DNA of 61,599 nt, counting the filler, from Squatina squatina (Eukaryota), in the NCBI GenBank assembly GCA_031763465.1. It is 3 parts of 3 records of this genome, joined end to end, with 100 filler letters (N's around TTAATTAATTAA, not from the genome) between each part and the next. Parts side by side here need not be neighbours in the genome. Positions count along the whole stretch, not along the records: positions 1 to 29,303 come from JARFOE010000168.1; 2 more parts are not named here. One strand, 5' to 3'. Positions 1 to 47,536 of this stretch are shown in pieces. How positions within the stretch are numbered: the stretch's first letter is position 1; each line of letters begins with the position of its first letter. The notes beneath the pieces are model-generated. The model did not search any database. It was not told the DNA's origin and saw nothing but the letters and a program-made list of their open reading frames with translations. Made by a program: the position numbers and the translations under genes.

Positions 1-315
1 TCTTAGCAGTCTGTTCAGCCATCTGAAGATGGGTGGGGAAGGCAACAAACCTGATCATTTAACCAATATCCACATGTGCACTTTCAGCAAGGTTTCCTCG
101 ATAATGATCGAAAAGGGAACCCTGCGTAACCTTTTACATCTCTTTGTCCAGAGGTACCAAGACAGTCGTATCTTCCCTGCTGGCTTGCATCAGGGTTGAA
201 ACTGGAGTCTTCCTACGTAGCTCTATACTGCAGCTGTTGGAGAGCTTGCCTTGTGGGCCGTTGTGAAAGCTGAAATACTGGAGGTTTGTATTAAATAAAA
301 GTGTTGTTTTTCAAG

Positions 316-5072: not shown

Positions 5073-6128
5073 CTAGGTAAAAAAACACAGGCAGTAAATG
5101 GGGTATCCATGGCAGGTCTAGGCCAGAGTTACTGCAGTTCCCTCCCTTAATTCCTTCAGGAGCCTCGGATGCAGTTCAACCGACTCCTGAGGCTTATTCA
5201 CCTTACATTAGCACAGCTGTTTGGCATCATGTTGGCAGTAATGTGAATCGAGTCACAGCTTAGAGAGAAAGAGCTCGCACATCTACAACCTTTCACAACC
5301 TCAGAACCCAAAGCGCTTTAAGGCCAATGAAGTACTTTTTGAAGAGCAGTCACTGTTGCAATGTAGGAAACACAGCAGCCAATTTGCACACTGCAAGATC
5401 CCACAAACAACAGAAATAAATGACCTGTTTTAGGTCAATCATAAAATAATGTGGAAATCTGAAATAAAAACACAAAGTGCTCAAATAACTCGGCAGGTCA
5501 GAGAGCATCTGTGGAGAGAGAAAGAGAGTTATCGGGAGGCTATTAACCTAGTGGAGGGCATGGGTTTGGGTGCGGGTGGGGGATAAAACCAGCAAAAGTG
5601 CCAGCGTGTTGAGAAGCCGGCACCAATCCGCCGAAATCCGTGTTTAACTCGAGTGCGCTAGGCTGCCTTTGTGCAACTTGCTTGGGAGAGGCGGGTTGTC
5701 CATTGACATATGCTAATCACTCAATTAGAGCAGTATTTCAACAGTTTCAAATTTAACAGCACATCCACGGGTTGCTGAGTCTTCCAGAAAGTCGCCAGTG
5801 AAAGCATGGCTGCAGCACAGCAGCAACTGAGGGGCTCAGTCAATTTCATGGAATACTGCAGTAAATACACAGCACTCACAGCTTCTTTCTTACCTGTTCG
5901 TGGGAAAGTGTTTTNNNNNNNNNNNNNNNNNNNNNNNNNNNNNNNNNNNNNNNNNNNNNNNNNNNNNNNNNNNNNNNNNNNNNNNNNNNNNNNNNNNNNN
6001 NNNNNNNNNNNNNNCTTTGGGAGTATTTCCTCTGCTCATACCCCAATAGTCACACTTCCAGGAATTCCCATCACCCACACACACAAACAATGCCAGCTAG
6101 AAGGGCAAGAAAATATCGAGTTCCTTAC

Positions 6129-6464
6129 CAGCTTGATTGGTGGTAATATTGACAGACGCAAAGTGGGGTGAGTAAAGACTCTGATCAGACACTCCGTTCA
6201 CAGCCTGGATCTCGAAGGTGTACTGTGTGTGTGCCAGCAGATCGCTGATGTATACGCGAGGCTCAGTCAAGCCCAACTGACGTGGGACAAACTGCACGTT
6301 ATCCCCGCATCGAGTGCAGACCCCACGGCCCGAATTGCAGCTCTTACAGATCACATTGTAAACTACGTCTTCCCGGCCTCCCGTATCGCGAGGAGCGGTC
6401 CATTCCAAGTTCAGGGACGTTTCATTTACACTGGAGATAACAGTCTGCGGAGCGGAGGGTGTCG
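6129..6464 (-). CDS. EPHB2: EPHB2 first fibronectin type III exon (336 bp)
   Basis: ttctccag|...|gtaagg; TPSAPQTVISSVNETSLNLEWTAPRDTGGREDVVYNVICKSC...YTFEIQAVNGVSDQSLYSPHFASVNITTNQA. Confidence 0.96.
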
Positions 6465-8262
6465 CTGGAGAAAAATAAAACACAAAGTCAAACCATCAGT
6501 GCCACTAATAACAGAACACATGCCCATTGCTGGAAATTCAACTTTCAATCTTTTATTATTTAGCACATTTTTCCACTTTTATTGNNNNNNNNNNNNNNNN
6601 NNNNNNNNNNNNNNNNNNNNNNNNNNNNNNNNNNNNNNNNNNNNNNNNNNNNNNNNNNNNNNNNNNNNNNNNNNNNNNNNNNNNGAAGAGGATGATCTGT
6701 CAAGAGAAATCTGGACAGATCGCAAGTTCCGGATCTGTGGGCATGCGCAGTGCAGCCTGAGATTCGGAACTTGCGAGATCCCCCCTGGGTGCGTGCGAAC
6801 ATGGTGCCCACACGGGGGGACCCAGAGGGATCGCAAATTCAGCTCCAATCAGTTTGAGATAATCATGACGAGGGGAGGGGAGGGGATGGGTCGGATAGGG
6901 TCGGTGCAAACTTGCCTTTTCCCATTTAGGGTTTTAAAGTGAATAAAATCCCGGCCCGCTGTCCTGGTGGCAGTTTCAAGCCACCCCCCAACTTTCAAAA
7001 TCACAGGACGCACGCTCGGCTTGGAAGAGGCTGAAAGTTGCTCAATATGACGCCACGTCATTAAACTGAAACATGGACCTGAGCAGGCAGGAGAAACTTT
7101 AAAGCAAAATCATGGCATTTTACAGTTGACTCGTGAGATCGCAGCTTGGCCCAATTTTTTAAAAATTAAAAATCGCTTGTCTCGCGATTAATTCATGAGA
7201 GTTGGCACTACTGAGAAAATCTGCTCATATTTTTCCTGTACATTACTGGGAACTGCACAACATGCTAGCGAGGGATTATTCAGAGCGTATGGGGTGCAAA
7301 ATAGCTGTGAGAGTGAGACAGAAACAGTTTTGAAACAAAGTACATTCACAAGAAGACTCAGAACAAGTAAGATTTGGAAAGTTATCTTCGGCAGCATTCA
7401 GGAGTGAAATGGTCTTTAGCCTAAGCAGAGCAAGAAACGTCATTGTGAGTACCAGATTATTATAAAATGTGCACGCTGCCACGCTCAGCTCATCACTTCC
7501 ACTTTCTGCTTGGGGTAAGCAGACAGCTTTCAACTTGGGGGAATTCCTGAATAGTGAAAGAATTAAGGGTTGAATTGATGTTAATGCTTTGTGTTTTCGA
7601 GTCCAGTGAATACAGAAGTAATGCAGCATGAGTGGAATTGTCAGTGTATTTGCAGCCAAGCCTGGAGTGGAACAGTTCCTTTAAGGTGGTCAGGGACCAT
7701 GCCACCTAGAGAGAGCTGGGAAATGTTCACAAGTTCAAAGCAGATCAATGCAAGTTCAGATGCAAGCGCGCACACATATCACAGTGTTCTCTGTTCACTG
7801 CTGCGTCTCTCGCCACACAAAAGCACTCACTAATCCCACTAAAGCCCTCTCCAAGCAGAACCAGACCCGCCTCTAGGTACTCTGAGGCTGCCAAATTACC
7901 CCTTTGTCAAAAGCCACAATAAAGAGAGCTCTGCACCTGAAGCTTCCATTCATCGGCCTCATTCTCAAATAGCACCAAATCCCAGTCGCTTTTCTGCTGA
8001 TTTTAATTAACGTGAAGTGAAACATGAAAAGTCCAGAAGAGTGAGTCAGGCCTCCATTGTCGTGAACAGTGCGGCCTGGGGGCGAGGCTAGAATGACAGA
8101 GTCCAATCTGCTCCCCGCCTTTCTATTGTGCTGTGAACTCCTTGAAGCTCATGTCAACGATTNNNNNNNNNNNNNNNNNNNNNNNNNNNNNNNNNNNNNN
8201 NNNNNNNNNNNNNNNNNNNNNNNNNNNNNNNNNNNNNNNNNNNNNNNNNNNNNNNNNNNNNN

Positions 8263-8887: not shown

Positions 8888-9380
8888 NNNNNNNNNNNNN
8901 NNNNNNNNNNNNNNNNNNNNNNNNNNNNNNNNNNNNNNNNNNNNNNNNNNNNNNNNNNNNNNNNNNNNNNNNNNNNNNNNNNNNNNNCATATATACATCG
9001 TATGTGCACAATGTATGCACAGTACATATGGAGATGTACCTGCCCACTATCCTACTTCCTCCCCACAATGGCATGTCTGGTATTGACAACCTAATTGGGT
9101 ACCTTTCTATAACAGCCCAATGAGTGGCATCCAGCACTGCAGCTCTGACCCACTCCCAGTTCGATTGGCTTCCTTGTTGAGTATGATGACAGTTGCTGTC
9201 AAAACAGAACAGCAGTCAAAGCACCCTTTCCCATCAGATCATACAACGCCGTGAATTAAATGGCAAAACACCAAAAGGTAAAGCTTGCCAATGGAAGGCC
9301 TGTTGCAGCACAGTTAACGTTCACTTGCATCCCCGGGGTTAGAGGGGAAGGGGACATGTGGAAATGCGCAGGGCACTCAC

Positions 9381-10062
9381 CTTTGCATGCCATAGCCTTT
9401 TCCGGCTCGTACCCGGCCTTGCAGGTACAGCTCCCTATGGGCACCATCCACTCTCCGTCACCATTACAGTACAGTTTGATGGGCACATCCACCTCCTCAG
9501 CATTCGGGACACAGCTCCCCCGAGCCACCACCAGGGACGTGCTCTCTGCTCCGGACAGCGTTTGCTGGAATATCGCCCCATTCCGGATCACCCGTGGGCA
9601 CTTTCGGTAGAAGACCCTGACTGCGATCAGAGACATGCATCCGCCATAATCCTGAAATGCCAGGTAAAAGCCATTCTTGGACACTGGCCCAAAGCTACGG
9701 ACTTCCGTGTTTATTTTCATCACCCTGCCTCCCAGATCCACCTGCGAAAAGCTTTCATCTGCTGCAATGGTATCCACTTTCATCCAGGGATTCTCCATCC
9801 AGTATGGAGTTGCCTTTGTAGCTGAATCTGTTTCAGATTCATAATAGTAGAGATTAAAGGTCTCCTTACAAGAGCCAGGGACATTGGGAATGCTACTACA
9901 GTCCCGCACGGAAAACTTCATCTCCACATGGATACGTTGGGCCCCTTTGCGTTTGATGTATTTGGTGCGAAGCCAGTTGTTCTGACTGGCTTCAAACACA
10001 TTGCAGACCTGGTACGTCCTTATGGTGTTCATAGTCTCGTCGTATCCACTGACTTCTTCCCA
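9381..10062 (-). CDS. EPHB2: EPHB2 ligand-binding domain plus start of cysteine-rich region (large exon, 682 bp)
   Basis: ttgcag|TGG...|gtgagt; [36 protein letters not shown]...[33 protein letters not shown]...[21 protein letters not shown]. Confidence 0.97.
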
Positions 10063-10181
10063 CTGCAACAGAAAGTGTAAANNNNNNNNNNNNNNNNNNN
10101 NNNNNNNNNNNNNNNNNNNNNNNNNNNNNNNNNNNNNNNNNNNNNNNNNNNNNNNNNNNNNNNNNNNNNNNNNNNNNNNNN

Positions 10182-11132
10182 CTCGTTTATTACAGTGTAA
10201 CACTCTCTCTAATCCTTCATGTGTTACAGTGTAACACTCTCTAATCCCTCGTATGTTACAGTGTAACACTCTCTATAATCTCTCATGCATTACAGTGTAT
10301 CACTCTCTCTAATCTCTCATGTATTCCAGTGTCACACTCTCTAATCCCTCGTGTATTAGAGTGTAACACTCTCTCCAATCTCTCGTGTGTTACAGTGTAA
10401 CACTCTCTCTAATCTCTGATGTAGTACAATGCAGCACTCTCTCTAATCCCTCAGGTATTACAGTGTATCACTCTCTCTAATCTCTCATGTACTACAGTGT
10501 AACCCTCTCTAATCTATTGCGTATTACAGTGTAACACTCTCTCTAATCCCTCATGCATTACAGTGTAACACTCTCTCTAATCTCTCATGCGTTACAGTGT
10601 AACACTCTCTCTAATCTCTCATGTATTCCAGTGTAATACTCTCTAATCCCTCATGTATTAGTGTGTAACACTCCCTCCAATCTCTCATGGATTACAGTGT
10701 AACTCTCTCTAATCTCTTGTGTGTTACAGTGTAACACTCTCTCTAATCTCTTGTGTATAACAGTGTAACACTCTCTCTAATCCCTCACGTATTACAGTGT
10801 AACCCTCTCTAATCTATCGTGTATTACAGCGAAACATTCTCTCTAATCCCTCGTTTATTACAGTGTAACACTCTCTCTAATCTCTCATATATTACAGTGT
10901 AAAACACTCTCTCTAATCCCCCATTTATTACAGTGTATCACTCTCTCTAATCTCTCATGCATTACAGTGTAACACTCTCTCTAATCCTTCGTTTATTACA
11001 TTGTAACACTCCCTAATCCCTCATATATTGCAGTCTAACACTCTCTCTAATCCCTCATGTATTACAGTGTAACACTCTCTCTAATTCCTCATGTATTACA
11101 GTGTATCACTCTCCCTAATCCCTCATGTATTA
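10182..11132. repeat. 34-bp (occasionally 32-bp) tandem minisatellite, about 28 copies, cut by gaps at both ends
   Basis: Unit TTACAGTGTAACACTCTCTCTAATC(C/T)CTCATGTA; successive starts at 10524, 10558 and 10592. Confidence 0.95.
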
Positions 11133-17050: not shown

Positions 17051-18128
17051 CAGGCGGGTGTATAACAGGCAGGTGTATAGCAGGATGGTGTATTACAGGA
17101 GGGTGTGTAACGGGCGGGTGTATAACACGACAGTATATAACAGGAGGGTGTATAGCAGGAGGATGTATAACAGGCGGGTGTATAATGGGCGGGTGTATAA
17201 CAGGAGCATATATAACGGGCAGGTGTATAATGGGCAGGTTTATAACGGGCGGGTGTATAACAGGCAGGTGTATAATGGGCAGGTGTATAACAGGCAGGTG
17301 TATAACAGGAGGGTTCATAACAGGAGGGTGTATAATGGGCGGGTGTATAACGGGCAGGTGAATAACAGGTGGGTGTAAAAATGGGGTGTATAACTAACAA
17401 GGTGTAGAACGGGCGGGTGTGTAACGGGCGTGTGTCTAACAGGCGGGGTGTATAACGGGCGGGTGCATAATGGGCCGGGGGTGTAACGGACGGGTGTATA
17501 ACGGGCGGGTGTATAATGGGCTGAGTGTGTAACGGGCGGGTGTATAGCGGGTGGATGTATAACAGGCGGGTGTGTAACGGGCGGGGTGTATAACAGGCAG
17601 TTGTATAACAGGCAGGTGTATAACGGGCGGGTGTATAACGGGTGGGTGTACAACAGGCGGGTTGTATAATGGGTGGGTGTATAACAGGCAGGTGTGTAAC
17701 AGGTAGCTGTATAATGGGTGGATGTATAACAGGCAGGTGTATAACAGGAGGGTGTATAGCGGGCAGGTGTATAACAGGCAGGTGTATAACAGGAGGGTGC
17801 ATAGCGGGCATTTGTATAACGGGCGGATGTAGAACAGGAGGGTGTATAACAGGAGGGTGTATAACAGGAGGGTGTACAACTGGAGATTGTATAACGGGCT
17901 GTTGTATAACGGGCGGGCGTATAACAGGAGGTTGTATAACAGGAAGGTGTATTACAAGACTGTGTATAACAGGAGGGTGTATAACAGACGGGTGTGTAAC
18001 AGGAGGGTGTATAACGGGCAGGTGTATAATGGACGGGTGTATAAAAAGAGGGTGTATAACAGAGAGGTGTATAACAGGAGGGTGTATAACAGGAGGGAGT
18101 ACAACTGGAGAGTATATAATGGGCAGGT
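17051..18128. repeat. 15-bp G-rich tandem minisatellite, about 70 copies, cut by gaps at both ends
   Basis: Unit AAC(A/G)GG(A/C)(A/G)GGTGTAT repeated head to tail; accounts for the VYNRR, IHPPV and YTPAR ORFs. Confidence 0.95.
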
Positions 18129-19655: not shown

Positions 19656-20212
19656 TTAATCTGGGAATATGAGGAATCCACTGAAGATGCTATCAGCTCC
19701 GTCGGATCCCAGCATCGAATTCAACTCTGTTGTTTGAAGATGGACTTCATCTTCTTTCTTCAGTTGAAGGACGACTCCCCCTGAGCTGACCTGGAACTTG
19801 TCGTACATCTGATCACAGAAACCAACCTGCTTTTCTCTATTTAGCATAATGTTGACACAGAGGTTCCCCTTGGAAGTTGCATGATATGTGAAGTAATACA
19901 AGCCTGCTATTTTACACACAAATTTTCCACGTCTAGATGCATAACTCTGCTGTTCATTGCTAATTATTCCATCAAACTTTATTGGGAAGTTTTTTTTGGG
20001 GCTGTAACTTGTTTTCCTTGCCACGGAAAAGGCCGACTTCTGGGTACTCATGTAGTCTCCAACCTCTCCATTTTGACCCCTTTCCCCCGCTGCACCCTTT
20101 TGTCCTTTTTCTCCTCTTTCACCATCAGGACCCACTTTTCCAGTGGAGCCCTCGGGGCCTTGCTCACCCTTCTGTCCTTTATTACCAGCCATACCAGCTG
20201 ATCCAGGGACAC
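19656..20212 (-). CDS. C1QB: Complement C1q B chain, terminal exon (Gly-X-Y collagen plus globular C1q domain)
   Basis: ttgacag|GT phase-1 acceptor; uninterrupted G-X-Y repeats, then GDYMSTQKSAFS...GKFVCKIAGLYYFTYHATSKGNLCVN...GFCD...FQVSSGG...GADSIFSGFLIFPD*. These motifs are closest to C1qB, and the position next to EPHB2 matches the human locus. Confidence 0.92.
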
Positions 20213-20607
20213 CTGTCAACGGCATAAGTCTTACAGTTGATGACTGAATTCATTGAGTGGAATCCGACTTCTGACTCATTCTTCATTATATTTTGACATT
20301 TGAAAGTTACATTTCTAAATATTCAGAATATGGACCCAAGCTTTAAGTCGGGTTGGGCCTGGGCTCCCGGTTTACACTAATGGGGCTGGTTCTGGGAAGT
20401 GATTAGTTCTGAGCACAGAGATGAGCAAAAGAGGGAAAGACTCGTGCTACTGGATCTCCCCTTTTCCTTCGCCCAGGGATTTCTCGTGAACCCCCAGGGG
20501 GATTGGGNNNNNNNNNNNNNNNNNNNNNNNNNNNNNNNNNNNNNNNNNNNNNNNNNNNNNNNNNNNNNNNNNNNNNNNNNNNNNNNNNNNNNNNNNNNNN
20601 NNNNNNN

Positions 20608-20935
20608 CAGCGAGTATAAGCCTAGTCTATCCAGTCTTTCTTCATATGAAAGTCCTGCCATCCCAGGGATCAATCTGGTGAACCATCTCTGTACTCCCTC
20701 TATGTACTCCCTTTATCTACCCTGCTAGTTACATCCTCAAAAGCTGTAACAGATTTGTCAAACATGATTTCCCTTTCAGAAAACCATGTTGACTCTGCCC
20801 AATCCTGATTTTCTAAGTGCCATGTTACCACTTCCTTAATGATGGATTCCAGCATTTTTCCGACGAATGCTGTCAGGCTAACTGGCCGAGAGTTCTCTGT
20901 TTTCTTTCTCTCTCCATTCTTGAATAGCAGTGTTG
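20608..20935 (-). mobile_element. Two juxtaposed CR1-clade LINE fragments
   Basis: MIPGMAGLSYEERLDRLGLYSL (ORF2 C-terminus) and PTLLFKNGER...RPVSLTAFVGKMLESIIKEVVTWHLE (RT start). Confidence 0.85.
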
Positions 20936-22312
20936 GGGTAATATTTGAGTGATATTCCTCGCCCTCTGCCACACTCCCTAATAGCTATGTGCAGAGAGAT
21001 AAGGCTTGACACGAGCAAAATGAAAATATGACAGCCACAATTTCAAATTTTTTGAAACTAAGTTCTCTGAAATAGTTAAGTAGTGCAAGATATTATGGAG
21101 CACTGGTAATTCCAATTGTGAATAATTTATAATATTTCTAAGCACCCAATATGTTCCTGGAATTACCTTACAATAGAAAGCAATGGGCATGGAAACAGTC
21201 TGTTGCCATTACAGTTTAATGCACCTGCCCATGAAATGGCCTTGGGAGCTGCTTGAACAAAATGAGATCAGGCAGACATCAGCAAGGCATGAAGATGGGG
21301 TCACTCAGTCTTAATTCTTCAAAGCTGGAATTTCTTAGGAAGAGAATTTTATATTGCCTCGTTAATACAAAGTGAAAACCAAACTCAGCGACAAATAGAA
21401 GTAGAATGTTCCAGAAATGTCTTTTCTGAACGTTTTTCCCTGTCCGACAAATGCAAATCTTCTAAATAACCTCATATTGCTACCAGAAATCTGAAAGAGA
21501 AATAATNNNNNNNNNNNNNNNNNNNNNNNNNNNNNNNNNNNNNNNNNNNNNNNNNNNNNNNNNNNNNNNNNNNNNNNNNNNNNNNNNNNNNNNNNNNNNN
21601 NNNNNNCGGCACCTCCGACAGTGCAGCACTCCCTCTGCACCACACTGAAGTATCAGTCGAGATTAGGTGCCAAATCCGTGGAGTGGGGCTTGAATCAATG
21701 ATTTTCTGACTCAGAGCCACGGCTGACAGACCTGCACATTTTAGCTGTTTTTTAGTTTACAGCTTTTTTGAGGCTGTGTCATGTTTTTCTGGATAAAGTG
21801 AGAGGATCCAGGTTCCTCACGGCTTCTCCCTCCTTCCCCGCCAAAATGGTCTGACTAACACTATGAAGAAAGAAGGCTGGACTGTAGCTGGTAGATTCAA
21901 TGTGGGTCTGATGATTAACTATCACTTGAGGGCATAGTAGTTTTAAAGGAACATAGACCCGGTACCGTGTGGTGCCAATGTGACGATGTAGGTTCACAGA
22001 AACATCTGTGGGCAGGAATGGAGTGCCTGGGGAGGCAATGTAGACAGAGAGTGCGGGAAAAGGATGGATATTTGAGGGAGTGAGAGATTGAGAGGGAGTC
22101 ATTTTGGGACCATTCTGATGGACTATGGTTTTTTTTTTCAACCAGTCTTATACTTTCCAATGTTGTTCTGGATAAAGAGGAATCCAACAGAACAGGGAGG
22201 GGGATAAGGCAGGGTGGGTAATTACTGATGTATGGGCACATGCCCCTGTTGACTACATGAGCGTATCATATAAGCTGAAGGTTCTTGGATCTATGGTGGA
22301 GCATTCAAAACA

Positions 22313-22902
22313 TTATTCAGCTGGGAAGAGAAGAAACCCAGAAAAGACACTGTCGATGTCTGCGGAACCAAAAACATTGTTGTTACCCGGTGTAGTTTCA
22401 AGCCACACCTTATCGTTCATCCTCAGCCGAAGTACTGTCCCCCCTGAATTCACCTGATAATTAGGCGAAGTAATTTTGCTTCCACCAACGTCACAGAATC
22501 CTGCTTCCTTTCTGTTGTTTTTCATTATCCTTATACAAAGCTTCCCTTCAGAGACTATATTGTATGTAAAGTAATACCAGCCAGCCTTACAAGTAAGAAA
22601 TATTCCAGTTAAAATATTAAAACAAGCTCCCTCATTGGTGATATACTTGTCGAACGTCATCGGGCTTTCAGGGTTAGGGTCATCAGTGGTGTTTTTGACA
22701 ACAGAGAAGGCAGGCCTTTCTTTGCCCACTCGAATGCCCATTTGCACTGATTGTCCCTTCTCTCCTCTCGGCCCAGGTGGTCCAGGTTCACCGTCTGGCC
22801 CTGATGGACCAACATATCCTCTAGGGCCATTAATTCCGGGGTGTCCTGGATCTCCCCATGGTCCTTTCATTCCTGGTTTACCAACAATACCATTGAGCAT
22901 GC
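22313..22902 (-). CDS. C1QA: Complement C1q A chain-like, terminal exon (collagen plus gC1q)
   Basis: tcctcag|GC phase-1 acceptor; starts with the interrupted triplet G-M-L-N-G (like the human C1qA G-I-R-T-G kink), then 16 G-X-Y, RPAFS...GWYYF...GFCD...QVNSGG...[13 protein letters not shown]. Confidence 0.82.
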
Positions 22903-23154
22903 CTGAGGATAAGAAGAACAAAAGATGAGTAAGAACACCTTAGAAATGTCCCTATTCATCTTTTTCTTCCACAGTTCTTGATGACCCACCAGAATAGAGA
23001 CAACTAAATGTGGGCAGTTGTATTCCTTTGCTCCAGCNNNNNNNNNNNNNNNNNNNNNNNNNNNNNNNNNNNNNNNNNNNNNNNNNNNNNNNNNNNNNNN
23101 NNNNNNNNNNNNNNNNNNNNNNNNNNNNNNNNNNNNNAAATGTCCCATACTTAC

Positions 23155-23252
23155 AAAAAGATTCAGGGCAGGTAAACCATATTCTGTAATCTTCACAACT
23201 CCCATCTTCTTGGTCCTTGTTCGCACAAGAAAATTCAAACAAAATGCTGCAC
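23155..23252 (-). CDS. CysD/WxxW-type domain unit 3, exon B (98 bp; open, but downstream of the unit-3 stop)
   Basis: gaacag|G...T|gtaagt; CSILFEFSCANKDQEDGSCEDYRIWFTCPESF. Confidence 0.6.
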
Positions 23253-23354
23253 CTGTTCAATACAGAATGGAATGGTGTGATATTCTAGTTCCTTAAACAA
23301 TTTATACTCTTTGAAATAATGTCACAGTATGAAAATATCGGGAAATGATTTTAC

Positions 23355-23517
23355 GGAGCAATGTTGTCTCCAGTGCTTGAGGCTGGAATTCTTGATATTG
23401 TCTCCACTTCACAGGCAGTCGGATTATTGCAGATAAAATCTGGATATTAATTTCGGAGATTCATAAGATCTTCACAATCCCCATTTCCTGATGGGTTATC
23501 TCGGTCAAACCACTGAT
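23355..23517 (-). pseudogene. CysD/WxxW-type domain unit 3, exon A, disrupted
   Basis: QWFDRDNPSGNGDCEDLMNLRN*YPDFICNNPTACEVETISRIPASSTGDNIA: in-frame TAA at 23447-23449 (GAA in units 1 and 2) and a 17-bp deletion at the exon 5' end. Confidence 0.72.
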
Positions 23518-24986
23518 CTATGGAACAAACAAAAAGCAGACTGTGAGGAACACTTTTAAAGATGGAATTGAGGGTATGGAATAGAAAGAGAATTTTTTCA
23601 ATAACTGGCTGAAAAGTATTTACACGGATTAATAATTGGTTTTAACCAATGGTTGCAGAGAGAGCTGAATAAAAAAGCAAAAATTGAAGTACCTAGTAAC
23701 AGAATTCATTCTGTGCCAGCTCCAAAAGGAATACTCCCTAAATACTGGCGAACATTTCTGTCCCCCTCACCAGCCCTTCTCATCTCCTTTCTAAGTCAGA
23801 CTGTTAATACAGTGCCCAAGCAAAATGAAATTTGGACATTTTTCAATGGATTTGCAGTTGCTGGAAGCTAGGCTGAGACTGGTCAATATGTTTCAATTAA
23901 GATCCTTTCAGCAGCACTGAGAGACAATGTCCCTTCCGTCTGATCTCCGAGATTAAAATCAGGGCCCAGGTGAATGACAATGTTCTGAGCTGAATTGTTA
24001 ACCTCTTTCCCAGTGGAAGACATACATTAATATTGGTGCAAAGGCAAAACACTGTGGATGCTGGAATCTGNNNNNNNNNNNNNNNNNNNNNNNNNNNNNN
24101 NNNNNNNNNNNNNNNNNNNNNNNNNNNNNNNNNNNNNNNNNNNNNNNNNNNNNNNNNNNNNNNNNNNNNNTGCATCAGTTTTCAGTGTTCTCCAGAGAAG
24201 ATCATTTTTATTCCTTAAAGAGTTAGTCATGCAGTCTGTGTCCAAGAGGTTATTCAGTAAGATAGTAAACTAGTGAACTTAAGAGGTATCTGTTGATTTG
24301 CAACACCATGGTATTAGCAAATTGTTTAGATATGTATCTAGAATAGCAAAAAATCTTAGCATTTAGTAATAAAAATCTCAAATGGTACAAACTGAGTGTG
24401 GTTCTGCAGGAACTACTGTTCCACCAAAATGTATATTACTGAATGAATACAATCCTGCAATTTACAGAATCCACATAAGCGCACTTCCTTACTTTATAAT
24501 GATTTCTTTTTAAATTTGAGAACTAATCCACTTTGACCCACACTTACCTTATAAGAAGGTTTAGTGCTTCATGCTCGACGACCATTGACTGTTGATCTCT
24601 AGTTAGTATTGTCTCCACTGCTGCAAGTATATTTTGAACCTAACAAAGCAAAACTCGAGCATTTTGGTCACTACCCAACTGACAGTCAACACGATGGAAT
24701 ACACTACATTCACAAAAAAAAAATCCAGGAGAGCACAGAAAAATGCAGCTAAAATTGTAGAGTCTCATTTTTAAAAGTTTTCACACGGGTCAACTCTGAG
24801 CCCTGATTGGAAGTATTTGGCCTGTGCTCTTTACCTCCTGCAGTGACACGACCATGATTAGGCGCACTAGGTGTTGGGTTCTTATCACTCGGTGATGCAG
24901 CTGGTAAGTTTTCAGTGAGCGTTTCCCCTAGAAGGTTCTTGATGTGCAACACTGCACTAATACTGCTCAGTTCTAACAATACTTAC

Positions 24987-25084
24987 AAAAAGATTCAGGG
25001 CAGATAAATCGTATTCTGTAATCTTCACAGCTCCTATCTGTTTGCTCTGAATTCACACAAGTAAATCCCAAAAAAATGCTGCAC
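24987..25084 (-). CDS. CysD/WxxW-type domain unit 2, exon B (98 bp)
   Basis: aaacag|G...T|gtaagt; (E)CSIFLGFTCVNSEQTDRSCEDYRIRFICPESF; absent from the ORF track, read manually. Confidence 0.78.
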
Positions 25085-25227
25085 CTGTTTAACACAGAAT
25101 GGTAAGGTGTGATAAAATTTGCTAAAAGAATACATATTTTTTGAAGTATAGACGCAGAAGAATTTCACCCCCGATTCTTTGAAATAAAGTGACGATATGA
25201 AAAAAGATAGGAGGAAATATTATTTAC

Positions 25228-25402
25228 TCAGTAACGATGTCTCCAGAGCTTAAGGCTGGAATTCCTGATATTGTCTCCACTTTACAGGCAGTCGGATTAT
25301 GGCAGATAAGATCAGGATATTCATTTCGGAGATTCACAAGATGTTCACAATCCCCATTTCCTGATGGGTTATCTCGGTCAAACCACTGGGTTTTGCGGTT
25401 GC
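25228..25402 (-). CDS. CysD/WxxW-type domain unit 2, exon A (175 bp)
   Basis: atcag|GC...GA|gtaa; NRKTQWFDRDNPSGNGDCEHLVNLRNEYPDLICHNPTACKVETISGIPALSSGDIVT; open frame with the same length and phases as unit 1. Confidence 0.78.
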
Positions 25403-25909
25403 CTGATTTATGGATCAAACAAAAAGCACACTGTGAGGAACACTTTCAAAGATGGAATTGAGGGTTTTTGGTTTCATGGGTGCAGAATAGAAAGAGAAAA
25501 TTTTAACACTTGGGCTCTTTATGGTGATGACCAAGTTGATGATACTTACACAGAATAATAATTGGTTTCAACTGTGGCAACTGAGAGAGCTTTAATAAAA
25601 AAAGAAAAAGCTCATGAAGGCAACTGTTTGGCCTTTGTTCACTGCCTCCTGCAATGATACGAGCATGGGTAAGCCCTGTGGGTGTTGGATTTCCAGCACT
25701 CTGTCATACAGTCGGTGAGTATTCAGTGTACCATTTTGCTAGGTTTCTTGATGTGTAACACTGCAATAACACCGTTCAGTTCTAACAGATTGAAATCATC
25801 TTCTTACTCAAACATATGGCAAAACTACAGCACTGATTGTAAAACACTTGTTTCCAAAGTATTGGATAACACTCAATAAATTCAACTTTTACAAATGTCC
25901 AATACTTAC

Positions 25910-26007
25910 AAAAAGACTCAGGGCAGGTAAATCGAATTTTGCAATCTTCACAACTCCTATCTGTTTGCTCTGAATTCACACAAGTAAATCCAGACAAAAT
26001 GCTGCAT
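25910..26007 (-). CDS. CysD/WxxW-type domain unit 1, exon B (98 bp, phase 2 to 1)
   Basis: aaatag|A...T|gtaagt; (E)CSILSGFTCVNSEQTDRSCEDCKIRFTCPESF, matching the domain C-half C-x4-G-F-x-C-x-N-x-x-Q...C-x-D-Y-x-(V/I)-R-F-x-C. Confidence 0.8.
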
Positions 26008-26116
26008 CTATTTAATACAGAACTGTCGGTTGTGATAATGTTGTTTGCTTAAACAATACACATTTTTTGAAATATAGACACAGTATCAAAGTAAGTTGGG
26101 AGGAATCATTTTTTAC

Positions 26117-26291
26117 TCAGAAATGAAGTCTTCAGTGCTTGAGGCTGGAATTCCTGATATTGTCTCCACTTCACAGGCAGTCGGATTACGGCAGATCTGA
26201 TCAGGATATTCATTTCGGAGATCCATAAGATCTTCATAATCCCCATTTCCTGATGGGTTATCGTGATCAAACCACTGGGTTTTGCAGTTGC
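26117..26291 (-). CDS. CysD/WxxW-type domain unit 1, exon A (175 bp, phase 1 to 2)
   Basis: atcag|GC...GA|gtaa; NCKTQWFDHDNPSGNGDYEDLMDLRNEYPDQICRNPTACEVETISGIPASSTEDFIS. The W-F-D-x-D-x-P-S-G-x-G-D-x-E...I-C-x-x-P pattern is typical of the Mucin2_WxxW/CysD domain, also found at the CILP N-terminus. Confidence 0.8.
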
Positions 26292-26599: not shown

Positions 26600-27540
26600 G
26601 TATGCCATGTGGCTGTCTGATATTTAATTCTGTCGCCACCTAGCTGGGAGGCCCCCATCTCCCCATCTCCAATGGCCCGGCAAACCAAGACTCCACTGAT
26701 GTTCAGCACCTCCACCTCTGCAGAGACATTGGGAGGCCCACCTCCGGTTCTCTGCTTCTCAGTTGTGTTCTATGCTCTCTTCTGCAAGGAGGGAAAGAGA
26801 GACCTATGAGTGAGAGTCATGGCATCTGTTGAATGGATGGATGGAGCGCATTTGTTGAGCATGACTATGAGGGAGAGACATGACATTGCATAAAGATGAG
26901 GGTGAGCGTCAGTCGTGGATAGGGATGTGAGCGAGTGCATAGAAAGAGGAGGGATGGGTGTACCTGCAAGGTTAAGTTGGTGTGAGCAGTGATGAGATGG
27001 AGTAGGCTTGAGAAGGAATAGTGAGGGGGTCGGAGTGATGTGCACTGTAGGATGTACATGAATGTGTCACTGTACTTTCCTGTCCTGTTTGAGTCATTAA
27101 ACTGCTTTCGGCATTGAAACCCACGAGCGTGGCACCAGATTCCTGTTGCTGATCTCATGGACAACCTCGAGCCATGCCTTCTTTGTTTCACCTTCAGGCT
27201 TCTTCCTCCTGTTAGTAGGAAAGAGCGTCTCCCTACAGGCTCTTGCATCCAGGGAGTTTCCACTACAACGATTCCATTCTGCCAATTCCTTCGGTTGTGC
27301 TCCAAACTCTCTGAAATTGCATATTTGGAGTGCCCCTTTAAATACTGGAATTGAAATCCCCTCATGCCGGTCGTCATCACGCCCTCTCACGCTAAATTGG
27401 TAGAGAAACCTGGAAATTACATGATAATGAGGTGGCTGGGTTAAAAGAAAACACTGACCGAAACACTGCACCTAATTTTGGGGTTTCCCGTGCGATACTG
27501 GACCCCACTTCCAGTGCGTCGCAAAGTTAAAGTGCAGCCC
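26600..27540 (-). mobile_element. Decayed PIF/Harbinger-type transposon carrying a Myb/SANT (trihelix) DNA-binding ORF remnant
   Basis: Frameshifted pieces LDARACRETLFPTNRRKKPEGETKKAWLEVVHEISNRNLVPRSW / QCRKQFND, and a downstream piece KRA*NTTEKQRTGGGPP, fit the NAIF1/MSANTD-like Harbinger accessory protein pattern. Confidence 0.65.
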
Positions 27541-28510: not shown

Positions 28511-28695
28511 CTGTTCACCTTCATTGCCCTAGTATATGTATGCTGTTAATTGTTATCTTGTGGTAAACTGATTTGTTAAAAATTAGAATCAATTAGACTG
28601 ATATGTCAGAAGGTTCACCCACGATTCTTCTTTATTGTTTCGAGGTAGCGCTTGGAAGAGTCGTCCTAAGGAGCAGTTTGAAGCCCTTGGACACC

Positions 28696-29303
28696 ATGGA
28701 GTTGCCAAACTACAGCAGGCAGCTCATGCAGCAGCTGTACACCCTGAGAAAAGAGGAGCAGTTCTGCGATTGCACTTTACTTATCGGAAACACGCAGTTC
28801 AGAGCACACAAACTCGTGCTGGCTGCCTCCAGCTTGCTGTTTAAATCTCTGCTGGACAACACGGACACAATTTCCATTGACCAGGCTGTTGTCTGCCCTG
28901 AAGAGTTTGCTATTCTTTTGGAGATGGTCTATACAGGCAAAGTTCCCCCAGGGAAGCACAACTTCACCAAAGTGGTTTCTGTTGCTGACAATTTGCAGAT
29001 GTTTGACATTGCTGTGAGCTGCAAGAACATAGTGGAAAACCTAATGAAACACACAACGGCAAATGAAATGCAGGCTGCCAGACCTGCTGTTGAAGAAGCT
29101 GTGCAGCATCTAGTTGCACAAAGTCCAACAGACACACATCAGCACTGTGCAGTGCAAGAATCGGACAAAAATGAGGAGTCTGCTCCTGCCAGTACTGAAA
29201 TAGCAGAACAAAATCTTTCTCTGGAAACATTAAACTGTGCTGGTACAGAAGGCTTTGAAGCTGCTGGAGCTGCTCTTCCCTCTGAGGAGAATATTCTGTT
29301 TGT
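28696..29303 (+). CDS. ZBTB40: Zinc finger and BTB domain-containing protein 40, first coding exon (BTB/POZ domain), truncated by the gap
   Basis: Kozak accATGg at 28696; MELPNYSRQLMQQLYTLRKEEQFCDC...FRAHKLVLAASSLLFKSLLDNTDTISID...GKHNFTKVVSVADNLQMFDIAVSCKN closely follows the ZBTB40 N-terminus. ZBTB40 neighbours the C1Q/EPHB2 locus in human. Confidence 0.95.
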
Positions 29304-29403
29304 NNNNNNNNNNNNNNNNNNNNNNNNNNNNNNNNNNNNNNNNNNNNTTAATTAATTAANNNNNNNNNNNNNNNNNNNNNNNNNNNNNNNNNNNNNNNNN
29401 NNN
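29304..29403. other. Artificial scaffold linker (44 N + TTAATTAATTAA + 44 N)
   Basis: Palindromic 12-mer with stops in all six frames at 29348-29359, exactly centred in a 100-nt gap; synteny switches here. Confidence 0.95.
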
Positions 29404-39420: not shown

Positions 39421-42225
39421 TTCTTTTCTTTTTGCCTCAAAATCTACCAGGTATATTTACGATGATACATTCTTTATTACCTTCCAAATCAATTATTTGG
39501 CAATTGATGGGAAAGAATCAATTTCACCTTCGTAACTCAGTTGTACAGGAGACTGACAGAAGCTGCAGTTGGTGAGTAATTTCAGTCACATTGTATCATC
39601 TCACTTGCAAAGGTGGATGAGGTGGATTTAGACTGCTGCCTACTTGAGCGGCAGTCAAATGTTCTGCGACTCAGCAACGGCCTGTGCATGTCAATGCTTG
39701 AATCAGTTGGGAGTTTCAGCTCACTGGACTGAAAGGGTAATAGCAGAATAAAATAAGTTTTATAAGCGTGAAACCTTCCATAATTTAATTCTGGAGATGC
39801 CAGAATCTGTTACTCTTCCAGATGGTTCATTTCGATACATTTTCTGCAGCTCACACCCCAACAGATCTTTGAAGGTTTAGTCCAGGCAGACTGTATTTTC
39901 AGTGATTTTGCTCTTGTCAAGTCTAGTGATGCTGGAGCTGAGCAGCGGCGCACTTAAGACATAATTCTTAGCGCTGAAGCTCAGGTCTGGCACGATTAGC
40001 TGTCAGGGATCATTTTCCAACTTCATGCTCCCTCTGGGGAGCTTCACCCACCGAGAGCCATTATCACAAACTCCAGCCTGCACAGCACGTGTCGAGGTTT
40101 CTGATATGNNNNNNNNNNNNNNNNNNNNNNNNNNNNNNNNNNNNNNNNNNNNNNNNNNNNNNNNNNNNNNNNNNNNNNNNNNNNNNNNNNNNNNNNNNNN
40201 NNNNNNNNGGGGGCAGAGTGTTTGTGTGTGCTGTTGATTCAGTGTCGGTCGGGTGGTACATCCCATTAATTTTAAGCTGTTAACAACTAATTGTCCCTCC
40301 TTCCCATTATCTGAACAAACAACTTAACCGGCCAAAGATTATATCGGAGGCCTTAAAAACCCAGAGCATCGGAGCTTCAAAACCTCAAGGAACTTCACCT
40401 GCTAACCAACGTGGTGATCTGTCATTTGCAATCTTTTATCAATTTTCGGCATTTTTTTTATTTCATCCCCAAGTATGTGCGAGACAGTAAAACTGATCAC
40501 TTTTTCCCTTTGTTTCCTGGGTTTTGCACCTGCTGTAAGTAGTTATATCTGGGCCTGGATGTTGTCTATACCTTACAAAGGGTCTCAAGAGATCTCAGCC
40601 AAGAGGAGCTCAGACCCTCAACCAAGTGACCGAGAGAGCAGCGTGAGTACAAGGGAAGAGGGGTCTGGGGTCCAGACATGGTCTGATTAATGTTACGTTA
40701 ATCATTTGGCTCAGATATTTGCAGCGTCTGATGTTGGTAACTGCCGACTGATACTGTCTTCTCTACAGTGTATCTGTTCCAATTCTGTATTTTTGTCGAC
40801 TATGCAAAGTTATAATTTTGTAGATTTTATTCCCCAGTAGAGGGGATTGGGTACGGGAACCAATTCATTGCTTTATAAATCAAAAAAATACTTCCATTGA
40901 GAGGCTTTAAAGAGGTTGTAAAAACAATTATTCCCTAAGTTTCTTGCATACAGATCTATCCTCCCGATTCCTGTAAAAATACAAAAGCATCAGATTGCCA
41001 GCTGTACTTTAACGTCTTTTACTTAGAAAGTAAATTGAAGCAGCAAATGGCTTTAAACGAATCCCTGAATATTTAACTGATAGTTAATGTAAAACTCAGA
41101 AAAGTTATAGGTTCTGGAAGAATAACATCAGTTTAACAGTCTGAATAATTCAAAACTTTCCTGAAAGTAACTTGTACACATTGTGGCAAGCTGATGTCTA
41201 TGAATGATAACTGAGATTCAAGGATTGAAAGTACTGATCCGGGCGTGAGGGGGAAGGAGAAGGGCGCAGAGGAACGAGGGTTCTATTAAGGGTCAATATG
41301 ACAGCAAGTTGGCAGACTGGCAATGCAATGGGAAATTGGAACCAAGTCAGCTGACTGCAGTAGACTTGGTCAACATGATACTTGAGCCAGACAGCTCTAT
41401 TGTACTTCAAATTACTCTTGGCTCACCAGTCGGGTTCACTGTTGTGACTTGGAGTAGTCACTTATTCATGGTTTCTAGGTTGTAGGATCTGTTGTATCTG
41501 ATTTATCAGAATGTGGTGACTTTTGCCAAACTAATCTTTATTCCTTCAGTCACCACATCACCAGTCCCACCCCACCTCCCCTCAAAAGATGCCCAATCCT
41601 TGCTGGGTTTGCTTCTACAAGCACCGCTAGTCTTCGTACCACATGTATGATCTGAGCCAGTGAGTGTCAGCGGGCACCCCTATCCTTAATCCAACTTGAA
41701 AAGGTGCATTTTCCAGCAGGTGTGTTTGAATAGTGATCAGGAGCAGAAACCCTGGCTGAAATCATTCACACTCCACCTTTTTCTGAAACTCATTGTGCCC
41801 CCACTTACCATTCCAAAACAATCTCCTCACAGCATGCGGTTAGTTTGCCTCTTGAGTCAGAAGGTTATGAGTTCAAGACCAACTTTGGGGCTTCAACTGA
41901 TAATCTNNNNNNNNNNNNNNNNNNNNNNNNNNNNNNNNNNNNNNNNNNNNNNNNNNNNNNNNNNNNNNNNNNNNNNNNNNNNNNNNNNNNNNNNNNNNNN
42001 NNNNNNTAACCATTTTCCTTTCCACAGATGCTGCCTGACCTGAGTTTTTCCAGCTTCTGTTTGTATGACTAATAAAGACCTTGCCCAAAAAAAGTCATTG
42101 CATATTTAAGATACAAAGTCCAATTGAGATGGATAATAAGTGTCCTTCATTCAGATTTCTACAGTGAACCAGTGCAACTAAATTAACCTTTCACACAATA
42201 AAACCCATCACGGTCCAACACTAAC

Positions 42226-42377
42226 CCCTCGCCCGTGAGTGCGCAACAGGCCTGGATGTGCCACGGATGGTCTTTGATGGATGTTAGTGTTAAAAACTTG
42301 GAAATCTCAGCTGCCGACATGGAGTTCTTCATGTCTTGTTTATTGGCAAATACCAGCACAGCTGCCTTCCGGAGGTC
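42226..42377 (-). CDS. ARL5C: ADP-ribosylation factor-like 5 GTPase, internal exon (152 bp, NKQD G4 motif)
   Basis: ttcacag|GAC...GG|gttagt; [50 protein letters not shown](G). The C paralog is assigned by its position between PLXDC1 and CACNB1. Confidence 0.9.
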
Positions 42378-43364
42378 CTGTGAATGAAAACAAGCCATTG
42401 TTACCTATCTTGTAGAACAAAGCAATACCAGCAGAGCAGATCATCGCAGAACTAAAGCTGGAAAACAGCAAGTGCAAATCAAACCAGGTTATGCTATCGC
42501 AGTCGAGGCTCAGCATTCAACTGCACAAACATGTTTAATGAACCCACCTGTTTCAGGGGTGTCTACATTTGGCCAAGCCCAACACCAGGCAAAGAACTGA
42601 CGAGTAATGTGCTGTGTGTGTTGCTGGTCTACAATAGCAATCATTTGNNNNNNNNNNATTAAGGCAGGCTTCCTACCCATTTTCTATTCCCACCCCTCTG
42701 CCTCCCCCAGTTTCTCAGGTGTTATTTGATTACAGAATACATTAAATCCAGGCCAGATTTGGTTTTCACCAGACATCCATAGATAGGAAACACTCCTTAC
42801 TGAGGTCTGTGCTGATTCAAACCACTGTCATTATAGACCTGCAAAGAGAATCCACAGTGCATTATTTGTGCCTGCTGCTCAGAATACCTGATCTTTTCCT
42901 TGTGTTTATTATCCGTTTAGGGGTGTTGCTCCCTTTCCAAGGCACTGAAGCCAACTGTGAGGCAACTCAGCTAACCCAGCACATGCAGGGTAAAAAAAAA
43001 ACAGCAAAATCTGGCCTGTGTGGCTTTCCAGTACACAGGTAGCATCTTTAACTAATTGGTTATGGGGGAAATCAGGAGTTTCTTTTATGGTGTACACCAT
43101 TATAACTTTGCCATCTTAATTCAGTACAGACTACTGGTACCTCCCTGGTCAGTATGGCTCATGGCTATTCAGCAAACCTGACCACCCAACCATTGGAACA
43201 ACAGAGATACTGAAGTTCACAGAACCAATATTGACACATTAGCCTATATAAAAAACAAATTCAGGATCCTATATACCAGATATCACATTCGTAGCAAACT
43301 CCCTTCACTTTTCTCCTCATCCAATACTCAGTTTACTTGCTTCCAATTTAGCAGCAAATTGTAC

Positions 43365-47038: not shown

Positions 47039-47536
47039 TTAGCAAATGTATACGTCGCGGTTCCACTCCTCGATGTCGCTCTGTTTCCTGGACAAGACCT
47101 CATCGTCGTTTTGCCGGTAGCGGTCTCTGGCTTTCAGCCGGCTCCTCTGCTGTCTGTTGTGGTTGTCGCGGTCCTCCTCCTCCTCCTCCTCCCACGACTC
47201 CTGCCGCTGGACTTGCTGCCGTGTGATGCCGCACCAGCGGGCGCCTGTGCCGTGGGGGTCCTCCGAGTGTTCCTGGTCGTCATAAGGGTCCAATTCCATG
47301 CAGGAGTCCCCTGGCTCGGTGTAGGCCGAGTCCCGACTACCCTGTGTCTCCAAGTCAAAGGTATCCTGGCGGGACAGACCGCGGGAGATGCCCCTCGGGT
47401 GATGGCTGTACTGAGGTGTGGAGGAGGACGAGCGACGGTAGCATTGTTTGGCAGAGTCGTTCCGATAGTCATTCAAGCCTGTCCGATCAGGTGTCGAACA
47501 GTCATTGCTTTGCTCTCCATGCACTAAGTAGGAACC
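47039..47536 (-). CDS. CACNB1: Voltage-gated calcium channel beta-1 subunit, terminal exon (beta1b-type C-terminus)
   Basis: ctaactag|GGT; GSYLVHGEQ...LSRQDTFDLETQGSRDSAYTEPGDSCME...RQESWEEEEE...EEWNRDVYIC*, paralleling human CACNB1 LSRQDTFD...SAYTELGDSCV...RQGSWEDEEE...WGRGVYIR. Confidence 0.92.
   Translation of the reverse strand, partial: GSYLVHGEQSNDCSTPDRTGLNDYRNDSAKQCYRRSSSSTPQYSHHPRGISRGLSRQDTFDLETQGSRDSAYTEPGDSCMELDPYDDQEHSEDPHGTGARWCGITRQQVQRQESWEEEEEEDRDNHNRQQRSRLKARDRYRQNDDEVLSRKQSDIEEWNRDVYIC

Follow-up and report, generated by a model that had tools for sequence, protein, structure and literature searches.

The closest described relatives of the locus reported here are the elasmobranch members of the fish CysD-only 'Mucin-5AC' family. 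[quoted passage not shown] Among its homologues, Table 1 of that paper includes proteins from a catshark, with 19 CysD domains, and from a skate, with 27, and we equate the shark proteins retrieved here with its entries by species and name. The neighbouring gene si:dkey-205h13.1 is by description a transmembrane protein (PMC13583502), and the zebrafish gene name is absent from the main text of PMC7806267. Among the mucins, CysD1 of MUC2 binds two Ca2+ (PMC7599080), and passages of PMC3195396 describe MUC2 CysD as forming non-covalent dimers and Oikosin 1, a house protein of Oikopleura, as carrying 13 tandem CysD domains. The kind of gene considered below is already described (PMC11765562), and the finding is therefore not a new system.

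CysD modules and their relatives

The window, that is the whole 61,599-nt stretch of Squatina squatina DNA analysed, consists of 47 gap-free pieces (median 1094 nt), mostly joined by 100 Ns. On its minus strand, in common with the last exon of C1QA, lie three two-exon (A+B) modules with outer limits at exactly 26291 and 23155 (Table 1), bearing out the layout proposed in an initial annotation of this DNA. A shark-repeat profile recovers exactly three A and three B exons (iE ≤ 1.8e-12; next best 3.6), matches that are far above chance. Neither a further CysD exon nor a signal exon for the CysD gene was found in the window by tBLASTn and profiles, the assembly being gapped.

Each of the six exons is bounded by AG and GT and shows the phases given in Table 1, and exon B of unit 2 is of the internal type, with a phase-1 donor at its end and no terminal CP-stop. 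The exon lengths first proposed, 175 and 98 nt, hold for units 1 and 2 and for every exon B, but not for the shortened exon A of unit 3; similarly, the T|GC cysteine codon expected at the B-to-A junction is restored in units 1 and 2, but the unit 3 junction codon is Tyr. Units 1 and 2 share one contig (24171-26355) and lie 889 nt apart, close to the 0.9 kb estimated, with A-B introns that align at 76–81%. The recent duplication read from these introns is unsupported, because the units are nearer to Heptranchias repeats (75–82% identity) than to one another (71–77%); nor do they form a clade. An A+B pair spans 273 nt and forms a phase 1-1 cassette, so its duplication or skipping keeps the frame, and this symmetry accounts for the wide spread in repeat number.

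Table 1 Coordinates of the CysD exons and of neighbouring exons in the window
Feature	Coordinates	Strand	Length (nt)	Phase	PF13330 (bits)	Remarks
Unit 1 exon A	26117..26291	-	175	1-2	37.6	AG/GT ends, open frame; encodes N-terminal two-thirds of CysD domain
Unit 1 exon B	25910..26007	-	98	2-1		
Unit 2 exon A	25228..25402	-	175	1-2	37.1	
Unit 2 exon B	24987..25084	-	98	2-1	31.0	
Unit 3 exon A	23355..23517	-	163	1-2		Disrupted
Unit 3 exon B	23155..23252	-	98	2-1	25.7	
C1QA last exon	22313..22902	-		phase-1 acceptor		Collagen end and gC1q; open to its stop
C1QB last exon	19656..20212	-				C1qB E 1e-42 vs C1qC 1e-31 and C1qA 1e-22; C chain rejected on these values
BTB-domain exon of ZBTB gene	28597..29304	+				Strand opposite to modules; gene presumably ZBTB40

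The PF13330 cut-off (22.4 bits) was passed, as the initial annotation had predicted, by five of the six exon-bearing ORFs first tested; the sixth, one half of exon A of unit 3, cut short by the stop, scored 14.9 bits, and the second half of that exon, tested separately, gave no match. The WxxW motif is present as its second Trp only, units 1 and 2 reading K-T-Q-W and unit 3 being without these residues, and the first Trp is likewise missing in the relatives retrieved from sharks, Danio, gar and squamates. An AlphaFold model of the Heptranchias relative (mean pLDDT 79) finds its best Foldseek matches in the CysD domains of MUC5B, MUC2 and MUC5AC, with TM(target) of 0.59–0.74 to isolated CysD chains; each module is thus predicted to have a mucin-CysD-like fold, as modelled on this relative rather than on the window units. 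Their acidic D-x-D...G-D-x-E stretch aligns with that of mucin CysD and marks a putative Ca2+ site.

Unit 2 exon A matches 10 of 13 candidate proteins, eight from elasmobranchs at 70–83% identity and two from Callorhinchus at 58–63%. The eight elasmobranch RefSeq/UniRef matches, named si:dkey-205h13.2 or 'mucin-5AC', consist of CysD domains alone, 6–21 in each, and the catshark and zebra-shark proteins, both named si:dkey-205h13.2, are among the best (80% and 71%). None of the 10 closest relatives, from a search covering proteins of 101–2000 aa, gave a match to vWD, TSP1, collagen or C1q; since all ten are CysD-only, the initial annotation was right that this is not an ordinary gel-forming mucin or a CILP. 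Those relatives with complete N-termini begin with a hydrophobic, signal-peptide-like leader, in keeping with the secreted product envisaged earlier, and the eight elasmobranch proteins have a net acidic excess of 31–198 residues with 15–17% Ser+Thr. Runs of near-identical repeats are species-specific, so that the birth-and-death process suggested for the locus survives as turnover of modules within one multi-repeat gene rather than among three related genes.

Proteins made of CysD alone are present in holocephalans, ray-finned fish (with several teleost subfamilies), amphibians, squamates and invertebrates as well, so the kind is not lineage-specific as first thought; what is confined to chondrichthyans is a type of repeat bearing one additional Cys pair, shared by the window units. 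The repeat tree places these units inside the chondrichthyan group (85/98), and over 84 columns a 99/83 branch unites chondrichthyan, zebrafish-type and squamate repeats, with no resolved order among the three. Mean identity to the window units is 52% for squamate CysD-only repeats and 45% for the zebrafish/gar type, a ranking that speaks against the assignment to the cupula considered below. We think it likely that all three units belong, as internal repeats, to one gene for a chondrichthyan CysD-only secreted protein, upstream of C1QA on the same strand and separate from it.

A candidate extracellular gel protein

The signal exon, terminal module and other repeats of such a gene are unassembled here. 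Its product would be a strongly acidic string of CysD beads lacking PTS domains, many weak contacts between which could cross-link a polysaccharide-rich extracellular gel. By analogy with the zebrafish namesake, this gel may be the cupula of the lateral-line neuromasts, whose height would set vibration sensitivity, and we lean somewhat towards this assignment.

The same gene might instead supply a general mucosal, skin or gut gel in sharks, or the gel of the ampullae of Lorenzini, and we regard this as a credible possibility, if not the one we expect. CysD-only proteins are found in squamates and invertebrates, teleosts have several subfamilies, and the repeat tree does not settle orthology to the zebrafish gene. 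Lizards have CysD-only relatives and, as squamates, no lateral line, so the function of the family is not sensory alone. Mucins have moreover been proposed in ampullary gel, in a passage of PMC8379299. Against this, the sole functional data for the gene bearing the name are neuromast-specific and point to a mechanosensory gel, not to the mucosal or immune role first suggested; nor was anything found linking the CysD protein to complement. In one supplement of a shark skin-mucus proteome the terms 205h13, XP_0386295, WxxW, mucin-5AC and cartilage intermediate have no occurrences, a weak negative since database names may differ.

Lesions and possible decay

Each of the three modules departs from the reference repeats. 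Exon A of unit 3 has lost 17 nt, a new AG 5 nt upstream preserving the frame, and carries an in-frame TAA at ~23449-23447; exon B of the same unit has Gly-to-Glu and Arg-to-Trp changes at columns 100% and 97% conserved in the reference repeats. In unit 1, exon B has a Cys at a column with Tyr in 97/97 reference repeats. Exon A of unit 2 has Arg in place of a linker Cys found in 81/81 internal reference repeats, a Tyr-to-Cys change within the GD-x-E stretch (1/97 reference repeats) and a Glu-to-Lys change at a 99%-conserved column. All three units have seven core cysteines, against six in 94/97 reference repeats, and near-invariant columns are departed from five times in three units against 30 times in 97 repeats counted by a leave-one-species-out test (Poisson p=0.003); for units 1 and 2 alone the figure is 2 of 38 departures, which is not significant (p=0.08). 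As read from the sequence, unit 3 is apparently dead and units 1 and 2 carry milder damage. The TAA could be a single-base error. General sequence error behind the lesions is unlikely, since the EPHB2, C1QA, C1QB and BTB exons have open frames.

Such lesions are rare in intact repeats and present in all three units, suggesting this copy may be decaying, although an assembly as fragmented as this one favours modules that have diverged. Taken to its end, decay would make the whole gene a pseudogene in this shark lineage, with the CysD gel protein lost by nature, which we judge possible but rather unlikely. To the stop and deletion of unit 3, the surplus cysteine and the near-invariant departures can be added 38 non-synonymous against 8 synonymous private changes (with 1 stop) and pairwise dN/dS values of 0.87, 0.81 and 1.47. 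Values near 1 are weakened as proof of pseudogenisation, however, by splitting the sites: relative to synonymous changes, variable columns evolve at 2.1 (p=0.066) and invariant columns at 0.52, the latter changing far less than the former (p=0.002). Invariant columns thus evolve roughly half as fast as synonymous sites, and most of the divergence therefore arose under constraint. Disruption of all copies, along with the lack of a spliced transcript, was named at the outset as telling against the initial reading; unit 3 is disrupted, but in units 1 and 2 the frames are open and the splice sites kept. Skipping of a dead 1-1 cassette would leave the frame intact, a degenerate repeat (repeat 5) occurs within the intact Stegostoma gene, and short-read assembly may tend to merge intact repeats that are nearly identical while retaining those that diverge.

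On a bolder reading, the gene for the main CysD protein of the lateral-line cupula, and possibly also of the ampullary gel, is being lost in this shark lineage, having long been a neighbour of C1QA in cartilaginous fish. For this to hold, the shark gene must be the cupula gene and the gaps must contain no intact modules, and we consider it doubtful. We flag a possible gene loss in one shark, which, if the cupula role were also true, would provide a natural knockout, to be set against sharks with 6–27 repeats in the form of the cupula and in flow sensing, the comparison called for in the zebrafish study (PMC11765562). Confirmation of both would make repeat number testable against cupula height and flow sensitivity in sharks and rays.

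The C1Q neighbourhood and comparison with known systems

The placing of the modules inside the C1q locus rests, within the window, on scaffolding, the unit 3 and C1QA exons lying on separate contigs with 100 Ns between them (23038-23137). In all six checkable elasmobranchs (Mustelus, Stegostoma, Heptranchias, Narcine, Mobula and Pristis), the contigs bearing the CysD gene and C1qA are identical in length, which places both on one chromosome-scale contig, a result that means the same chromosome and not adjacency. It is very unlikely that the CysD contigs belong elsewhere and that their adjacency to C1QA is a scaffolding artefact: no contig in this fragmented assembly covers both, and ARL5-like and CACNB-like exons follow at 42–47 kb (the exon at 47 kb had no usable match in the ESM Atlas), from genes which we take not to be C1Q neighbours in human, but the same-chromosome signal and the expected order of EPHB2, C1QB and C1QA along the minus strand both argue against it.

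By tBLASTn and profiles, neither the signal/collagen exon of C1QA (exon 2) nor its C1QB equivalent nor C1QC was found in the window; that the latter two are missing as well points to assembly gaps behind the absence of C1QA exon 2. C1QA is most likely a gene separate from the CysD modules. That these replace its missing exon in a CysD-collagen-gC1q chimera, as the shared strand and the in-frame T|GC junction of two phase-1 sites might suggest (phase 1 being common for exons of extracellular modules), is highly improbable, since PF13330 and PF00386 were not found together in relatives of either kind: all 14 named chondrichthyan C1qA-type matches are ordinary proteins of 248–253 aa, each with a signal and collagen exon of its own, PF13330 occurs in 0/33 matches of the C1qA search (107–342 aa), C1q occurs in none of the 10 CysD relatives (101–2000 aa), and the unit nearest C1QA is the one with the stop.

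What is apparently new is the CysD gene on the C1qA chromosome of six elasmobranchs, beside C1QA in this scaffold, a link that we did not find in print; the chondrichthyan-specific Cys pair and the phase-symmetric cassette are added to it.

Of the known systems, MUC2, MUC5AC and MUC5B share with the window modules the CysD fold, as modelled, and the acidic stretch, but have vWD-C8-TIL units and PTS domains, which the 10 closest relatives of the modules are without. None of these was found in 232 window ORF translations scanned, out of 372 ORFs of at least 52 aa that lie away from the locus and from two satellites; of the ORFs to the left of 26.8 kb, the scan covered a minority. The RefSeq name 'mucin-5AC' is misleading for the shark proteins. 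CILP combines one CysD-type domain with TSP1, Ig and other parts, in contrast to the tandem modules of the window, and neither TSP1 nor Ig parts were found in the window or in close relatives; the related domain of CILP1 and CILP2 is noted in a passage of PMC3195396. Tandem CysD alone, as in the window, is the architecture of the fish CysD-only 'Mucin-5AC' family, whose elasmobranch members equal the window units in repeat length and cysteine pattern at 70–83% identity. The window copy differs from them in that three internal modules alone are assembled, each having a surplus core Cys and one of them a stop, and in its absent signal exon and terminal module; chondrichthyan repeats in turn have one Cys pair more than those of bony fish and ~45% identity to the zebrafish/gar type. 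More distant are the repeats of Saccoglossus, Branchiostoma and Patella, which do not have the chondrichthyan Cys pair, match the window units at a mean identity of 41% and form a separate group in the repeat tree, Oikosin 1 itself lying outside the alignment. Oikosin 1 and the Saccoglossus oikosin-like protein are nevertheless secreted CysD-only strings thought to organise an extracellular gel, as we propose here for the shark protein.

CysD modules beside C1q exons in a fragmented shark assembly

The window holds three A+B modules, all with AG/GT ends, and a profile made of 97 CysD repeats from sharks and rays (the reference repeats) together with the three units detects three A exons, three B exons and no others. 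Five of the six exon-bearing ORFs pass the PF13330 cut-off, as the initial annotation had expected. The CysD feature is real and was for the most part well described there, but it belongs to a family already in print, of which it is an incomplete and partly damaged member. The picture of three like units holds for units 1 and 2, in-frame cassettes of 273 nt, but not for unit 3 (also in frame, 261 nt), whose exon A is missing 17 nt and relies on a new AG located 5 nt upstream; it has also lost two linker cysteines and carries an in-frame TAA. Unit 3 is dead. A-B introns are 76–81% identical among the units, with dS between units of 0.10–0.19. A recent, species-specific duplication is not shown, since the units resemble one another less (71–77% identity) than they resemble Heptranchias repeats (75–82%), and they form a clade in 0% of 200 bootstrap trees (100-row tree) and in 1% for the 89-repeat tree.

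Features recognised in the window
Feature	Position	Strand	Basis
EPHB2 exons	6100-6495 + 9259-10080	-	top PDB match EphB2, E 5e-139
Satellite, 34-nt unit x 28	10188-11132
Satellite, 15-nt unit x 70	17051-18105
C1QB last exon	20212-19656	-	sequence match
LINE-like reverse transcriptase remnant	20703-20984	-	weak RVT_1 match
C1QA last exon	22902-22313	-	sequence match to elasmobranch C1qA
CysD unit 3	A 23517-23355 / B 23252-23155	-	PF13330 family profile
CysD unit 2	A 25402-25228 / B 25084-24987	-	PF13330 family profile
CysD unit 1	A 26291-26117 / B 26007-25910	-	PF13330 family profile
Myb/SANT-like ORF stretch	27100-27471	-	presumed likeness to Harbinger-associated repeats; no Pfam match
BTB exon, presumably ZBTB40	28597-29304	+	domain match
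ARL5-like exon	42186-42404	-
Open exon	47042-47536	-	presumed likeness to calcium-channel beta-subunit C-terminus; nothing from Pfam or Atlas
Second LINE-like reverse transcriptase remnant	60652-61035	-	presumed

The window comprises 47 gap-free pieces (median 1094 nt), joined mostly by 100 Ns, and its contig order was probably set by reference-guided scaffolding. By profile search, C1QA and C1QB are represented in it by their last exons only (19656-22902), their signal/collagen exons and C1QC being absent, and no EPHA8 exon was recognised; all of these are probably assembly gaps. The C1QA exon is 73–75% identical to C1qA of Heterodontus and Pristiophorus and 57–69% to that of other elasmobranchs, which makes a shark the most likely source. 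Where the collagen part meets the globular head, two Gly columns that are at least 90% conserved among 15 aligned chondrichthyan chains (residues 52 and 56) are occupied in this exon by Val and Ile, and one Gly-X-Y triplet contains a Trp. Each satellite array occupies almost its whole contig, and the Myb/SANT-like stretch separates the BTB exon from the CysD units. The BTB exon is on the strand opposite to the C1Q genes, with no zinc-finger exons recognised downstream in the window; in human, ZBTB40 and the C1Q genes presumably share one strand. Human CACNB-ARL5 pairs are on chromosomes other than that of C1Q, and a scaffold join or rearrangement right of ~30 kb is therefore possible.

Relatives and distribution of the CysD gene

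Unit 2 exon A matched 10 proteins among 13 candidates: eight from elasmobranchs at 70–83% identity (CysD domains by Pfam: Mustelus 21, Scyliorhinus 20, Stegostoma 18, Leucoraja 11, Narcine 9, Heptranchias 7, Cetorhinus 6, Pristiophorus 6) and two Callorhinchus models at 58–63%, with two domains each. No stretch in these 10 passes for any other Pfam domain, and five have a hydrophobic leader. Databases name them si:dkey-205h13.2, 'mucin-5AC' or uncharacterised; the published family spans cartilaginous and bony fish, its members having a signal peptide and 2–27 CysD domains, among them catshark (19 CysD) and skate (27 CysD) proteins (PMC11765562). Short Thr/Pro linkers mark a second type of chondrichthyan repeat (working labels P0047, P0073, P0194, P0196, P0004), which occurs alone or, in batoid proteins, N-terminal to standard repeats.

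Of 7997 candidates scored in a profile search, 307 proteins reached E <= 1e-20. The best 120 of these include fish (cyprinid and acanthomorph si:dkey-205h13.2, gar, sturgeon, bowfin), caecilian, axolotl, newt, geckos, Anolis and Podarcis, as well as amphioxus, tunicates, Saccoglossus and Patella; this breadth contradicts the suggestion of a lineage-specific gene. No mammal, bird or frog is found in the best 120, which does not prove that they lack such proteins. The squamate proteins (P0234, P0241, P0291, P0293, P0295, P0297) are CysD-only, and the three examined have 3-4 domains each and a leader resembling a signal peptide; squamates lack a lateral line. Some teleost CysD-only models contain PF01066 or are named 'transmembrane protein 269' (P0213, P0268, P0294), which suggests TMEM269 is a neighbour of the teleost gene.

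An extra cysteine pair is found in the window units and in 22/22 complete chondrichthyan repeats aligned (one gapped Callorhinchus repeat has a single Cys of the pair), and is absent from the aligned bony-vertebrate and invertebrate repeats. In a tree of 89 of 109 repeats the units group among chondrichthyan repeats (85/98, not starred), and a 99/83 branch places chondrichthyan, zebrafish-type and squamate repeats on the same side, their order not separated. On average the units are 65% identical to chondrichthyan repeats, against 52% for squamate repeats and 45% each for the zebrafish/gar type and for other teleost repeats.

Array turnover, possible decay and linkage to C1qA

In the 100-row tree a single starred group (96/94) unites the true terminal repeats of six species, and several catshark-Mustelus pairs agree by position; near-identical runs occur within Mustelus, Cetorhinus, Heptranchias, Narcine and Leucoraja. 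The array is old, anchored at its ends and turning over in the middle. The window modules are all of internal type, none with the terminal CP-stop. The birth-and-death proposed initially thus survives as module turnover inside a single gene, as the phase 1-1 cassette permits, and not among members of a gene family.

We consider it unlikely that the whole gene has been lost in the source shark, although unit 3 has its stop and deletion, all three units have seven core cysteines versus six in 94/97 reference repeats, and unit 2 carries Arg at a linker site where 81/81 internal repeats have Cys. Departures at near-invariant columns (5 in 3 units versus 30 in 97 repeats, p=0.003) also speak for decay, and the private changes (8 synonymous versus 38 non-synonymous plus the stop) may do so. 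Against it, the departures are not significant for units 1 and 2 alone (p=0.08), and the rate of change at invariant columns is still 0.52 times the synonymous one. An equally degenerate repeat lies within the intact Stegostoma gene, and a fragmented assembly would keep divergent repeats and collapse intact ones.

Linkage was read from the size of the genomic sequence bearing each gene in the protein database. The CysD gene and C1qA share one value in 6/6 species with both: Mustelus (76,748,233), Stegostoma (49,913,908), Heptranchias (37,379,989), Narcine (376,162,909), Mobula (47,181,656) and Pristis (32,947,653). Scyliorhinus, Leucoraja and Cetorhinus (no C1qA entry) and Pristiophorus and Callorhinchus (no size value for the CysD gene) fall outside this count. 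The two genes thus sit on one chromosome, an arrangement inherited once, which does not imply adjacency; the claim that the units lie beside C1QA is upheld at the chromosome level in these six species, but no window contig joins a CysD unit and C1QA. We found no report of this linkage in a literature search largely without subscription papers.

Exon B and the C1QA exon have compatible phases and the C1QA signal/collagen exon is missing, so a CysD-C1QA chimera was put to the test; it is disfavoured by ordinary C1qA proteins (14/14 named chondrichthyan C1qA-type matches, 248–253 aa, whose first ~55 residues precede the part encoded by the window exon), by the absence of PF13330 from 33 C1qA-type matches (search range 107–342 aa) and of C1q from the 10 CysD relatives, and by the wider exon losses. 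As the equivalent C1QB exon and all of C1QC are absent too, an assembly gap is the simpler cause.

A putative gel cross-linker

In its AlphaFold model (mean pLDDT 79, pTM 0.51), the seven-repeat Heptranchias protein is a series of copies of one small beta domain. It is best matched, in structure and in sequence, by CysD domains from MUC5B, MUC2 and MUC5AC; MUC2 CysD1 is described as a sandwich of six strands that binds two Ca2+ (PMC7599080). The shark proteins have a strongly acidic composition and are not PTS-rich. In zebrafish, the sole species studied, the gene is expressed in neuromast support cells, and mutants have shorter cupulae (38.2 versus 47.4 um) and a delayed startle (5.4 versus 4.2 ms), although the protein could not be seen in the cupula (PMC11765562). 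We infer that the product would be secreted, multivalent and stabilised by Ca2+, and would cross-link a polysaccharide gel, by analogy most likely that of the neuromast cupula. As the repeat tree does not separate orthologues, this role is assigned to sharks from the database name and from the BLAST-based table of PMC11765562.

The ampullary gel, for which mucins have been proposed (PMC8379299), is a candidate alternative site. A general mucosal role is a rival to the cupula; five search terms for the CysD protein were unmatched in one supplement of a shark skin-mucus proteome, which reports vWD-type mucins (PMC10707392). The immune role once suggested finds little footing, position being the gene's sole tie to complement. 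Our search, again largely without subscription papers, found no report of its expression in sharks.

The initial annotation was right that this is no ordinary mucin: gel-forming mucins, as defined in PMC4948705, combine vWD-C8-TIL with PTS regions, whereas the 10 closest relatives of the shark gene lack both and are built of CysD alone.
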